Below are positions 11,292 to 14,732 of a stretch of DNA of 64,000 nucleotides, piece after piece. The stretch is from Brevundimonas sp. (GTDB taxonomy: Bacteria > Pseudomonadota > Alphaproteobacteria > Caulobacterales > Caulobacteraceae): positions 5,447 through 69,446 of the forward strand of contig NZ_JBALUS010000008.1 of NCBI RefSeq assembly GCF_036963785.1. The letters run 5' to 3'. A program made the translations under genes and the position numbers. Position 1 is the stretch's first letter, and each line of letters opens with the position of its first letter. The notes beneath the pieces are model-generated. The model saw only the letters and a program-made list of their open reading frames with translations. It made no database searches and was not told the origin of the DNA.

Positions 11292-11429
11292 TCCTCCCCT
11301 GTGTAGCGTAGCGAAACGGGGGAGGGGGACCGCGCGCAGCGGGGTGGAGGGGGCGGACCCTGACACCGGTGCCTGTTGTCGCCCCCTCCACCACTCCGTG
11401 GTCCCCCTCCCCCGCGGGCGGGGGAGGAG
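11292..11429. repeat. REP/CIR-like palindromic intergenic element (CCTCCCC...GGGGAGG family)
   Basis: Nested inverted repeats GGTGGAGGGGGC/GCCCCCTCCACC with terminal CCTCCCCCGC/GCGGGGGAGG hairpins; related copy at 50724. Confidence 0.85.
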
Positions 11430-11437
11430 ATGAGTGC

Positions 11438-12475
11438 ATGATCAAATATATCGGCTCGAAGCGGGCTTTGCTGGGGCAGGTGACCTCGGCGATCGGCGCG
11501 CTGGCGGGGCCGGGGACGACCGTGTGCGATCTGTTTTCCGGGTCGGCGCGGGTGGGGCATGCGCTGAAGCGGGCGGGCTACCGCGTCTGGTCAAATGACC
11601 ACAATGCCTATGCCCATGTACTGGCCACCGCCTACGTGCAGGCGGACCGCGAGCGCTGGCTGGACCGGGCCGAGGCGGTGCTGGCCGAGCTGCGGACGCT
11701 GAAGCCGGAAGCGGGCTGGTTCACCCGGGCCTTCTGCGAGGATGCCCGCTATTTCCATCCGGACAACGGCGCGCGGATCGATGCCATGCGCGCGCGGATC
11801 GAGGCGCTGGATCTGGAGCCCGAACTGAAGGCCATCGTGCTGGTCAGCCTGATGGAGGCGGCCGACCGGGTCGATTCCACGGCGGGGGTGCAGATGGCCT
11901 ATATGAAGCGATGGGCCCCGCGCGCGCTCAAGCCCCTCGAACTGCGGATGCCCGATGTCCTGCCCTCGGTGGGGGGGCCGTGCCGGGCGACGCAGGCCGA
12001 TGCCGTCGAGATCGCGCCGGAGATCGAGGCCGATCTGGTCTATCTGGACCCGCCCTACAACCAGCATTCCTATCTGGGGAACTACCACTGCTGGGAGAGT
12101 CTGGTGCTGTGGGACAAGCCCGAGACCTATGGCATCGCCAACAAGCGGATCGATGTGAAGACGCGCAAAAGCGCCTTCAACAGCCGGCCGGGGATCGGGC
12201 CGGCGCTGGCGGCGGTGATCGAGGGGCTGAAGGCACCCAACCTGGTCGTGTCCTTCAACGACGAGGGCTATCTGGACCGGGAAGCTCTCACCGGGATGCT
12301 TTCGGGGCGCGGGCATGTGCAGGTGATCGAGATCGCCCACCCCCGCTATGTCGGCGCGCGCATCGGCATCCATAACCCGAAGGGCGAAAAGGTTGGCCAG
12401 ATCGGGCGGCTGAGGAACGTCGAGTATCTGTACGTCGTGACGCCCGAGCCGGTGGCCCTGCCGCACGCAGCTTGA
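11438..12475 (+). CDS. Orphan DNA adenine methyltransferase (D12/Dam-like)
   Basis: KYIGSKR, DLFSGS (SAM-binding motif), YLDPPY (catalytic motif). Confidence 0.9.
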   Translation: MIKYIGSKRALLGQVTSAIGALAGPGTTVCDLFSGSARVGHALKRAGYRVWSNDHNAYAHVLATAYVQADRERWLDRAEAVLAELRTLKPEAGWFTRAFCEDARYFHPDNGARIDAMRARIEALDLEPELKAIVLVSLMEAADRVDSTAGVQMAYMKRWAPRALKPLELRMPDVLPSVGGPCRATQADAVEIAPEIEADLVYLDPPYNQHSYLGNYHCWESLVLWDKPETYGIANKRIDVKTRKSAFNSRPGIGPALAAVIEGLKAPNLVVSFNDEGYLDREALTGMLSGRGHVQVIEIAHPRYVGARIGIHNPKGEKVGQIGRLRNVEYLYVVTPEPVALPHAA

Positions 12476-12505
12476 TCTGCGGGAACCGTCGGAGTTTGAT
12501 GCCGT

Positions 12506-12787
12506 TTGATCGCCATGGACGCGATCAGAGACATTCAGGCGGGCGAGATGGGCAGCGAGGCCAGATTTGCGGGCCGGGGTCTGGTCCGGTCAGAACGGGC
12601 GGTCGACGCCTTTCAGACCGTCGCCTGGCGTGCGCCCGAACCGCGCCGGGACCGGTTCACGGCAGCCAACGTCTCGGACCCTGCAGAGGCCGAGAGCGAA
12701 GAGATCCCGCACTGGATGATCCTGGTCGGCGGGGCATTGCTGGCGGCGTTGATGGGCGCCCTGATGGGCGGAGCCATGGCGCTCTAA
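12506..12787 (+). CDS. Small membrane-anchored hypothetical protein
   Basis: C-terminal TM segment PHWMILVGGALLAALMGALMGGAMAL; start uncertain. Confidence 0.65.
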   Translation: MIAMDAIRDIQAGEMGSEARFAGRGLVRSERAVDAFQTVAWRAPEPRRDRFTAANVSDPAEAESEEIPHWMILVGGALLAALMGALMGGAMAL

Positions 12788-12870
12788 GCTGGGCGCCCGA
12801 TCAGATCGGACGTTGTTTCGCGGCAGTGTTGCGCGATAGGTGCCATCTGAGATTTTGCCAGCCAGCGCTG

Positions 12871-12900
12871 TTGACCGATTTTTTCCCCCGCTGCTAGGGT
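12871..12900 (+). promoter_or_regulatory. Putative sigma-70 promoter of the peptide genes
   Basis: TTGACC-N16-GCTAGGGT, resembling the Caulobacter housekeeping consensus. Confidence 0.5.
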
Positions 12901-12931
12901 TCGGCAAGATCAACCTTAGCAGGAGCACGGC

Positions 12932-13069
12932 ATGTCCGAGAGCAAAGCCGAGACCCTTGATCCCAACGCCAAGATGGAATGGGAAGCACCCACACTTCAG
13001 CGTCTCGACGTTGAATGCGCTGAGAACTCCATCGGCATCAATGTCGATGGCTTTGATATCAGCAGCTAG
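12932..13069 (+). CDS. RiPP (lasso-like) precursor peptide 1, 45 aa
   Basis: AGGAG SD at 12921; MSESKAETLDPNAKMEWEAPTLQRLDVECAENSIGINVDGFDISS (absent from the ORF track). Confidence 0.75.
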   Translation: MSESKAETLDPNAKMEWEAPTLQRLDVECAENSIGINVDGFDISS

Positions 13070-13218
13070 GCAGACGCTCTGGCACAGAGCCGAAGCTGGG
13101 TGACAAGCATCCGCCATTGGATAACCTGGCCGGTGGCGAACTGAATGCGTGCTTGCCAAACCGACGACGGGTTCATACCTTCGCCGAAGCCAACACTGGC
13201 ACAGCCGAGAGCCATCAG

Positions 13219-13350
13219 ATGACTGAAGTTACGACCTTGGATCGGGAAGAAAATCTTCCGGAATGGACCGCTCCGGAACTTCAGCGTCTGGATGTCGACA
13301 GTGCAGAGGGTAATGCGGCCGCCTCGTTCGATGGTTCCGGATTTAGCTGA
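13219..13350 (+). CDS. RiPP (lasso-like) precursor peptide 2, 43 aa
   Basis: MTEVTTLDREENLPEWTAPELQRLDVDSAEGNAAASFDGSGFS; paralog of peptide 1. Confidence 0.75.
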   Translation: MTEVTTLDREENLPEWTAPELQRLDVDSAEGNAAASFDGSGFS

Positions 13351-13389
13351 TACGTCCCAAGCTTTGAAAGCTGTCCTCGTGTTGAGGAT

Positions 13390-14046
13390 TCACTTGACCA
13401 ACGATGGCATGCCCATCCTGCGGTGTTCCGTGCCGCCGGACTGCAGAAGGTAGCGGATCGGCGCGAACGAGCGCCGGTGCTGGGCGCAGGGGCCGAGGCG
13501 GTCCAGCGCCTGACGGTGTAGCGGCACGCCATATCCCTTGTGCCGGGCAAAGCCGTAGCCGGGGTGTTCGTCTTCCAGTTCGTGCATCAGCCGGTCGCGA
13601 GCCGTCTTGGCGAGGATCGAGGCCGCGGCGATCGAAGCGGATTTCGCATCGCCCTTGATGACCGCGACCGAGCGGCAGCCCACATCCAGCGCATGATTGC
13701 CGTCGATCAGGGCGAGAGCGGCACAGTGCGCCAGACCCTGTACCGCGCGACGCATGGCCAATTCGGTGGCGCGCAGGATGTTCAGGCGGTCGATCTCCTC
13801 GACCGTGGCAAAGGCGACTGACCAGCATACGGCCTGCGCCTTGATGTCGGCCTCGGCCTCATGGCGGGCGATCTCTGACAGAACCTTGGAGTCGTTCAGG
13901 CCGTCGGGCAGATGGTCGGGATCGAGGATGACGGCAGCGGCGCTGACCGGCCCGGCCCAGGGGCCACGACCGGCCTCGTCCACGCCGCAAACGAGGCCGT
14001 GGGCGGCCCATTCCCGTTCCAGCGTCAGATCGGGGCGGGGAAGCAT
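13390..14046 (-). CDS. rnhB: Ribonuclease HII
   Basis: GVDEAGRGPWAGPV; DSKVL; IKGDAKSASIAAASILAK; HKGYG. Confidence 0.97.
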   Translation of the reverse strand: MLPRPDLTLEREWAAHGLVCGVDEAGRGPWAGPVSAAAVILDPDHLPDGLNDSKVLSEIARHEAEADIKAQAVCWSVAFATVEEIDRLNILRATELAMRRAVQGLAHCAALALIDGNHALDVGCRSVAVIKGDAKSASIAAASILAKTARDRLMHELEDEHPGYGFARHKGYGVPLHRQALDRLGPCAQHRRSFAPIRYLLQSGGTEHRRMGMPSLVK

Positions 14047-14645
14047 CAGCCCTGACCTGACGACAGGGGGGCATGGCGATGGCAGGTCGCGACGTGATCA
14101 TTGACCATGCCGGTCGCCTGCATGAAGGCATAGACGATCACCGGACCACAGAATTTGAAGCCCTCGGCCTTGAGGGCCTTGGCCATGGCGACCGACTGCG
14201 GGGTCTGGGCGGGGACCTGGGCCATCGAGTGCCAATGGTTCTGGATGGGCTGCCCATCAACGAACGACCACAGCCAGTCCGACATGTCGCGGCCCTGCTC
14301 CTGGAGGTCCAGCCAGCGTCGGGCCCCGGAGATGGTGGCGTCGATCTTGGCGGCCGAGCGGACGATGCCGGCGTCGTTCAGCAGGCGCTGGCGGTCGGCT
14401 TCGTCATAGCGGGCGACCCTTTCCGGATCGAAATCGTCAAAGGCCGCGCGGAAGGCCTCGCGCTTCTTCAGGATGGTGATCCACGACAGGCCGGCCTGGA
14501 ACCCGTCCAGCACCAGCTTTTCCCACAGCGCGCGGGCGTCATGCTCTGGCACGCCCCATTCCTGGTCGTGATAGGCGACATAGAGGGGATCGGTGCCGCA
14601 CCAGCCACAGCGGCCGGTCGTGTCGGGCACGGGCGAGTCGGTCAT
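14046..14645 (-). CDS. tag: DNA-3-methyladenine glycosylase I
   Basis: RCGWC...YHDQEWGVP; FQAGLSWITILKKRE; GFKFCGP; VNDH. Confidence 0.95.
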   Translation of the reverse strand: MTDSPVPDTTGRCGWCGTDPLYVAYHDQEWGVPEHDARALWEKLVLDGFQAGLSWITILKKREAFRAAFDDFDPERVARYDEADRQRLLNDAGIVRSAAKIDATISGARRWLDLQEQGRDMSDWLWSFVDGQPIQNHWHSMAQVPAQTPQSVAMAKALKAEGFKFCGPVIVYAFMQATGMVNDHVATCHRHAPLSSGQG

Positions 14646-14732
14646 GGGTTCAGAATCGCCGGGCTGGTCGCCAGACGCAAGAGTCATGTCCCGTCAGACG
14701 CCGGGCCGGGTGCGATCTGGCAAGGGGGAACG

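Follow-up and report, generated by a model that had tools for sequence, protein, structure and literature searches.

The window, i.e. the 64-kb stretch of DNA (64,000 nucleotides) analysed here, belongs to contig C8 of a Brevundimonas genome of 2.97 Mb and 67% GC (G000). Flanked by housekeeping genes, it contains two small ORFs on the plus strand, which the original prediction had described as 45- and 43-aa frames with a common leader motif. Both frames are indeed intact and their translations agree with this description: precursor gene 1 (ORF1; 12932..13069, +) starts with the ATG at 12932 and encodes 45 aa plus stop, and precursor gene 2 (ORF2; 13219..13350, +) starts with the ATG at 13219 and encodes 43 aa plus stop. 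Upstream lie a gene for a D12-class adenine methyltransferase (11369-12475) and a conserved 93-aa ORF (12506-12787, +) with a Gly/Ala/Leu-rich hydrophobic C-terminus. Downstream, the convergent rnhB gene encoding RNase HII (13390-14046, -) is followed by a gene for 3-methyladenine glycosylase (14046-14687, -). The 93-aa ORF matches no Pfam or NCBIfam family; since relatives without the peptides possess it as well, it is not regarded as part of the peptide system.

The two peptides have in common TLD near the N-terminus and, further on, E-W-x-A-P-x-L-Q-R-L-D-V-x-x-A-E. The inferred leaders, both with A-E as last residues, comprise 31 aa in ORF1 (12932-13024, +) and 30 aa in ORF2 (13219-13308, +), and the inferred cores are NSIGINVDGFDISS (13025-13066, +) and GNAAASFDGSGFS (13309-13347, +), respectively. 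With 13-14 aa the cores are short, and both exhibit the claimed Asp-Gly at positions 8 and 9 as well as the final Ser. The aromatic-x-x-Pro-x-Leu motif for binding of the RRE is present as W-E-A-P-T-L in the ORF1 leader and W-T-A-P-E-L in that of ORF2, and Asp8 provides each core with an acidic residue within positions 7-9, where lasso rings are closed. In alignments of ORF1, ORF2 and all close relatives, the penultimate leader position is occupied by Ala rather than Thr. The predicted neutral monoisotopic masses of the cyclised cores, as calculated, are 1418.668 Da for ORF1 and 1168.478 Da for ORF2, which a single phosphate would raise to 1498.634 Da and 1248.445 Da; for a cut one residue earlier, between Ala and Glu, the predicted values are 1547.710 Da and 1297.521 Da.

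ORF1 is preceded by the predicted Shine-Dalgarno sequence AGGAG (12921-12925, +), located 6 nt 5' of the ATG as read from the sequence. The sigma-70-like promoter claimed for this gene was not confirmed, as a stringent consensus scan of positions 12700-13500 detected no promoter; TTGACC and TAGGGT, separated by 18 nt (~12873-12905, +; read from the sequence), form at best a putative weak promoter-like site. Comparison of the regions upstream of the orphan precursors, the in-cluster precursors and the kinase gene revealed no convincing shared 10-mer (≤1 mismatch). The ORFs had also been called unannotated, which is correct in that no name is given to them, but public gene callers do call both as "hypothetical protein", and public collections include a called protein identical to ORF1 (P0009).

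When the whole genome was searched by tblastn, ORF1 matched ORF2 at E=2e-5, so that their similarity exceeds chance. A profile of the family yielded E-values of ~1e-17 to 1e-22 per genome, including 7e-19 for ORF1 and 4e-17 for ORF2. In NCBIfam, the sole match of both ORFs was NF033524 (paeninodin family lasso peptide; E 0.0014 and 0.033), with scores of 18.3 and 13.9 bits that derive from the leader motif only and stay under the curated cut-off of 27 bits. In-cluster relatives also remain under this cut-off, reaching 12-13 bits or giving no match. A Pfam search of the two peptides returned nothing meaningful.

Lasso-type clusters and paralogs elsewhere in the genome

According to the original prediction, the 64 kb contain no cyclase, peptidase, RRE or kinase gene. 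Models for the cyclase, PqqD and B2, together with tblastn searches using the proteins of the cluster on contig C9 including its kinase, produced matches on contigs C1, C2, C4 and C9 and none on C8, and tblastn detected no paralog of any C9 enzyme on C8. Thus, this claim stands. The proposed genome-wide search for cyclase, B2, PqqD/B1 and HPr-like kinase genes located all of them on C9. In the whole genome, PqqD-domain genes are confined to three sites within the lasso-type clusters, two of them on C4 and the third on C9.

C9 harbors a complete kinase-type (paeninodin/pseudomycoidin-like) lasso cluster, which extends from ~36.6 to 44.9 kb on a single strand. The gene order is HPr-kinase-like K, PqqD/B1, a 51-aa precursor, Asn-synthetase-like cyclase, ABC transporter, NTP_transf_5 (PsmN-like N), B2 and P450. 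The transglutaminase-like B2 scores 75.6 bits with the NCBIfam model lasso_biosyn_B2 (cut-off 33), and lasso cyclase is the best NCBIfam family for the cyclase. The in-cluster precursor possesses the leader W-R-A-P-S-L-L-R-L-D-A-E-C-A-S and the core SNPTAGVDATGSAS. This leader is identical to that of ORF1 at 10 of 15 positions and to that of ORF2 at 8 of 15, every invariant one included; the divergence of the ORF1 and ORF2 leaders from it is about as large as that observed among the in-cluster leaders of four C9-type clusters.

The second lasso-type cluster, on C4, is heavily tailored (~7215-15739 of L004, G000:C4:394000-413000). Its cyclase gene is flanked by two PqqD genes, and the tailoring genes encode a RiPP radical-SAM C-methyltransferase, a 2OG-Fe oxygenase, an Stf0 sulfotransferase, a methyltransferase and a kinase-like protein; kinase-like genes with PF07475/TIGR04352-type matches are thus found in both clusters. 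The in-cluster precursor (L004:13174-13317, -) carries the core GISYRPTDGISNL(S/T/TP) after A-A-E. A far greater distance separates the leaders in the window from the C4-type leader, W-V-K-P-E-I-V-S-F-L-P-A-K-A-A-E. Because the window leaders are close to the C9 leader and far from the C4-type one, the C9 enzymes appear to be the likelier partner of ORF1 and ORF2. In the host genome, no B2 peptidase gene is present in cis at the C4 cluster. Further Transglut_core3 (B2-like) domains were observed at G000:C1:164356-164706 and G000:C2:259209-259520, in frames of 284 and 296 aa away from any lasso cluster; these genes might provide the peptidase that the C4 cluster lacks, or they may have no connection with it. 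As a side observation, the core GISYRPTDGISNL(S/T/TP) is near-invariant and follows an invariant A-A-E in ~60 sequences from Sphingomonas and Brevundimonas, and the searchable literature contains no report of this conserved C4-type core.

A six-frame motif scan identified a third orphan precursor on contig C2 (L006:9155-9292, +; G000:C2:95154-95291) with the core AGAAGTTDSGILS. It sits between genes for an FAD oxidoreductase and a TonB protein and is followed at its 3' side by a GC-rich terminator-like hairpin with a T-run. Hence, the host genome has five paralogs, three of them unclustered (ORF1, ORF2 and the C2 orphan) and two within the C9 and C4 clusters. Their alignment reveals invariant W17, P20, L25, A30 (position -2) and D39 (core position 8), and all five have cores of 13-14 aa with Ser at the end. 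ORF1 and ORF2 are therefore homologous to precursors inside complete lasso clusters, and they keep every position that is invariant in the family, i.e. Trp, Pro, Leu, Ala(-2), the acidic residue at core position 8 and the C-terminal Ser. Addition of relatives to the alignment leaves W, P, L and A unchanged throughout, and Asp8 gives way to Glu in a single case.

The leader search suggested by the original prediction, carried out here across genome and genus, thus found paralogs, some of them inside lasso clusters. The family profile matches 8 of 276 genomes of the genus and the C9 cyclase query matches 9, among which are all 8 peptide-carrying genomes. The genomes are mutually related and, hence, this co-occurrence does not amount to a formal statistical test; among the 276 there is nonetheless no genome with the peptides that lacks a cyclase homolog. 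No ortholog of ORF1 was detected in any genome searched. In genomes G131 and G229, its closest relative is an in-cluster precursor, whose leader ends with L-Q-R-L-D-V-G-Q-A-E and whose core starts with Asn like that of ORF1. For the C2 orphan, a syntenic ortholog exists in G109, and public data contain several near variants. G457, a complete genome consisting of a single contig (L063, L065 and L066 on C1), possesses three tandem in-cluster precursors and five unclustered ones, the orphans forming two tandem groups at ~100 kb from its clusters. These members exhibit the A-E junction (once A-G) and Asp8 (once Asp7), and the first residues of their cores include F, V and N. Orphan precursors thus recur across several genomes. 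In public protein data, 78 homologs were found, all from Brevundimonas and Sphingomonas, and every named one is a "hypothetical protein"; a search seeded with the 4-sequence family alignment matched only two Brevundimonas loci.

These data bear on the idea that the two frames are open by chance or code for small proteins that have nothing to do with RiPPs, or, in a variant of it, that they represent a new RRE-dependent RiPP class with unknown enzymes. It would fit that no biosynthetic gene lies within 64 kb and that no curated family threshold is reached. However, the profile links both ORFs to in-cluster lasso precursors at E ~1e-17 to 1e-22, the family is confined to genomes with a cyclase homolog among the 276 searched, the PqqD-domain genes of the host reside only in the C9 and C4 lasso-type clusters, and an Rfam search of positions 12400-13600 found no RNA family. 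We regard this explanation as largely refuted and very improbable. The new class, which the original prediction had offered as an alternative, is not needed.

The precursor cassette between the 93-aa ORF and rnhB

Both peptide genes lie in a GC-poor stretch of 664 bp (12790..13453), with 56.5% GC as compared to 67.3% for the genome. Their GC3 values are 0.64 (ORF1) and 0.49 (ORF2) versus ~0.8 in other precursor genes, and their codon usage is atypical. In the closest relatives, G001, G131 and G229, whose flanks are 85-91% identical, the site comprises 25 bp instead of the 664 bp in the window. In G209 (89% flank identity), 297 bp are present at the site and contain a single ORF2 homolog (L036:1284-1424:-) with the core TAAAVNFEGSGFAS, which has Glu8. 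A third variant (P0017), likewise with Glu8, is encoded on JGI metagenome contigs that show the same gene order. In G209 as well as on the JGI contigs, the homologous gene is located among the D12-class methyltransferase gene, the ~90-aa ORF and rnhB, with one precursor gene each at the site that holds two in the window. From these variants it follows that a precursor cassette repeatedly occupies the site between the ~90-aa ORF and rnhB. The peptide genes have diverged far beyond their flanks, and together with the low GC content this points to import or exchange as the origin of the cassette rather than simple vertical descent. A mobile element was also considered and rejected, as neither a transposase nor a clear target-site duplication flanks the 664-bp stretch, the boundaries of which are fuzzy. 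The last ~21 codons of rnhB (13390-13453, -) come from the inserted cassette DNA: following the common ...F-A-P-I-R, the 3' end of the gene is wholly unlike the last 9 codons of the relatives.

RiPP precursor families usually combine a conserved leader with a variable core. Accordingly composed values were obtained when pN and pS were compared: for the leaders, pN was 0.21 and pS 0.89 between ORF2 and its G209 homolog, 0.19 and 0.74 between ORF1 and ORF2, and 0.18 and 0.56 between the C9 in-cluster precursor and its ortholog in G109. The cores are more variable than the leaders, with pN of 0.39-0.54 for the pairs ORF2/G209 and ORF1/ORF2. Judged by these substitution patterns, the leaders are under purifying selection, as in the in-cluster genes.

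Could the two genes nonetheless be non-functional passengers, i.e. recently imported or duplicated copies that are unexpressed or unprocessed and bound to decay? The atypical codon usage and the GC-poor stretch, which is absent from the closest relatives, fit a recent import and leave room for poor expression. Low GC3 (0.49-0.64), the failure of the 12700-13500 scan to find a clear promoter and the lack of an ORF1 ortholog in the genomes searched would likewise agree with passengers. However, both frames are intact and retain all invariant residues of the family, and ORF1 has a good AGGAG ribosome-binding site. Moreover, two other lineages carry ORF2 homologs at the corresponding site, with a leader pN well under pS and a conservative change of Asp8 to Glu8, and orphans recur in several genomes, always in company of a cyclase homolog. 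We therefore consider this explanation unlikely.

Cleavage register and predicted product

By comparison of the sequences, a cut after Ala-Glu is possible, which would place Ala at -2 and Trp at -15 and would allow a ring between residue 1 and Asp8. In this A-E| register, an invariant residue falls where lasso leaders carry the conserved Thr. G457 additionally encodes a canonical in-cluster precursor (L064 8975-9160, -), in which Thr is found exactly 13 residues past Trp and is followed by Ala and G1...D8; the column of this Thr is that of Ala(-2) in the ORF1/ORF2 family. The ~60 C4-type relatives have the invariant A-A-E followed by Gly1, with Asp exactly seven residues later. With the cut at A-E|, the residues at core position 1 range widely (N, G, A, S, L, T, V, F), a spread not usually seen among lasso cyclase substrates. 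In the A|E register, position 1 would be Glu in nearly all members, the exceptions being Ser and Gly. A motif-to-cleavage spacing of -17/-14/-12 (PMC10368454) was rejected for the family, because it would leave ORF2 with an Asp only at core position 6.

The same enzymes might also yield a product that is not a lasso, either an unthreaded branched-cyclic (lariat) peptide or, following a cut at A|E, a nine-membered Glu1-Asp9 ring. Merely 5-6 residues extend beyond Asp8, and the shortest lasso peptides with an 8-residue ring have, to our knowledge, tails of 7 residues. Unusual variability at position 1 under A-E|, as opposed to almost constant Glu under A|E, argues in the same direction, and pseudomycoidin is reported to be unthreaded when unmodified (PMC6993621). 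However, only the A-E| register provides a conserved residue at -2, which matches Thr(-2) of the canonical precursor from the same genus, and the C4-type relatives exhibit an invariant Gly right after A-A-E with Asp exactly 7 residues on. In addition, C9 carries a pair of K and N genes predicted to be able to supply a bulky C-terminal plug. A non-lasso product is thus possible, albeit somewhat unlikely in our estimate.

The reading that we favor, with a probability of roughly two-thirds, is that ORF1 and ORF2 are intact orphan precursors of a kinase-associated lasso family of Brevundimonas and Sphingomonas, on which the C9 enzymes would act in trans, giving rise to lasso or lariat peptides that are very short and carry a phosphorylated C-terminus. 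Since the complete maturation cluster is on another contig, the peptides are probably processed in trans. This is also the best-supported part of the original prediction, which had envisaged trans-matured, possibly phosphorylated minimal lasso-type precursors with Ala instead of Thr(-2): the C9 cluster supplies kinase, B1, C, D, N and B2, its own precursor shows the same leader type, Ala(-2), Asp8 and final Ser, and within the genus the peptides were detected solely in genomes that have a cyclase homolog.

By analogy with paeninodin, SyanA, BsfA and pseudomycoidin (PMC5067487, PMC9266682, PMC10368454, PMC6993621), the following sequence of events can be proposed for these orphan precursors. 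The peptides would be translated from their own locus, and the W..P.L leader would be bound by the B1 protein of C9. Aided by B1, the kinase would phosphorylate the C-terminal Ser of the precursor, to which the PsmN-like N might add a further bulky group. Cleavage after Ala-Glu by B2 would remove the leader, upon which the cyclase would join the new N-terminus to Asp8, generating an 8-residue ring with a tail of 5-6 residues for export by the ABC transporter. In this manner, a single enzyme set could serve dispersed precursors with variable cores, in the host genome one in-cluster precursor and three orphans. The ring would be followed by no more than 5-6 residues, which makes a classical side-chain plug doubtful and may not suffice for a stable threaded fold. 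Given so short a tail, the role of lower plug may fall to the modified C-terminal Ser, as speculated for pseudomycoidin; alternatively, the product may be a lariat without threading. In its most far-reaching form, a lineage of alphaproteobacterial lasso systems would keep a dispersed precursor library outside the cluster, from which the shortest lasso peptides yet (8-residue ring, 5-6 residue tail) would arise, with threading secured by enzymatic addition of phosphate or a glycosyl moiety to the C-terminal Ser rather than by bulky side chains, and with Ala-Glu cleavage replacing the Thr(-2) rule; we deem this combination rather unlikely.

Relation to known systems

Kinase-type lasso clusters of proteobacteria form a described clade (PMC5067487), and kinases of the paeninodin type phosphorylate the C-terminal Ser of precursors (PMC9266682). 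Like paeninodin (PadeA) and the products of the kinase-type clusters (PadeK, ThcoK, SyanK), ORF1 and ORF2 have a leader with aromatic-x-x-P-x-L and then L-D-V, an acidic ring-closing residue at core positions 7-9 and a C-terminal Ser as presumed kinase target (PMC9266682), and the C9 cluster shares with this clade split B1/B2, C, D and an HPr-kinase-like K (PMC5067487). In contrast to the Thr(-2) of the paeninodin type, they possess Ala(-2) and a conserved Glu(-1), and they further differ by cores of 13-14 aa, an HMM score under the cut-off and the lack of any adjoining biosynthetic gene. The score below the NF033524 cut-off and the missing Thr(-2) weaken the claim that the two peptides belong to the paeninodin family, but not the claim that they work alike. 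The paeninodin core comprises 23 aa; the exact leader numbering assumed here for paeninodin is based on the NF033524 match. Lasso precursor genes are further defined by adjoining B (B1/B2) and C genes. At ORF1 and ORF2 there are none; such sets adjoin the paralogs on C9 (complete) and C4 (without B2).

Similar to C9, the psm cluster of Bacillus pseudomycoides, which specifies pseudomycoidin, contains a kinase gene and a PsmN-like NTP_transf_5 gene. Modifications by PsmK and PsmN, yielding a bulky phospho-/glyco-modified C-terminal Ser, are proposed in PMC6993621 to hold the short tail and lock it in the ring. Pseudomycoidin differs in that it originates from another phylum and has a clustered precursor, and the modification chemistry in the present case is predicted. 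BsfA from Bradymonas sediminis is likewise kinase-associated, has a non-Thr penultimate residue and forms a Gly1-Asp8 ring, demonstrating that B1/B2 pairs can use another residue at -2 (PMC10368454). Unlike in ORF1 and ORF2, this residue is Ile, not Ala, the motif spans -17 to -12 rather than -15 to -10, Ser3 and not the C-terminus is phosphorylated, the core has 21 aa and the precursor is clustered. Whereas Ile(-2) has been validated (PMC10368454), precursors with Ile, Val or Ala at -2 have been predicted bioinformatically (PMC10368454, citing Kretsch et al. 2023). The Ala-Glu junction was thus correctly described as non-canonical in the original prediction, but Ala(-2) is not new.

Several precursors for one enzyme set are known from other systems. 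In the prochlorosins, class II lanthipeptides made by ProcM from dispersed ProcA genes, leaders are conserved and cores hypervariable, and some of the genes lie far from the single enzyme and are processed in trans. The family described here exhibits the same organisation, with a conserved leader, variable cores and genes far from the enzymes (three unclustered genes among five paralogs in the host, and five beside three in-cluster genes in G457), and trans processing is predicted; this is an analogy only, as RiPP class, enzymes and leader family are different. Caulosegnins and caulonodins, which have Thr(-2) and cores of ~17-20 aa, derive from Caulobacterales. There, one B/C set serves several precursors with divergent cores, and position 1 can be non-Gly (PMC13352647; PMC7549694). 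Unlike in the case of ORF1 and ORF2, all of these precursors reside in the cluster, the B protein is fused, an isopeptidase is present and a kinase is absent.

The searchable literature holds no report of lasso precursor genes scattered outside a cluster, nor of an Ala-Glu family or of 13-14 aa cores on an 8-residue ring. With Ala(-2) already predicted, the newer points are the unclustered lasso precursors and the cores of 13-14 aa, which amount to a modest twist on a known system and not to a new class. In genome mining, lasso precursors are sought beside B and C genes, and Thr(-2) together with a Gly start usually counts towards the score. Such rules miss this family, whose members are named "hypothetical protein", fail the curated model, have Ala-Glu before short cores and lie in part dispersed over the chromosome. 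Should maturation of the orphans occur in trans, a cluster would have several products and counts based on clusters would understate lasso diversity. The very short tails also constitute a natural test of C-terminal phospho-/glyco-modification as a lasso plug.
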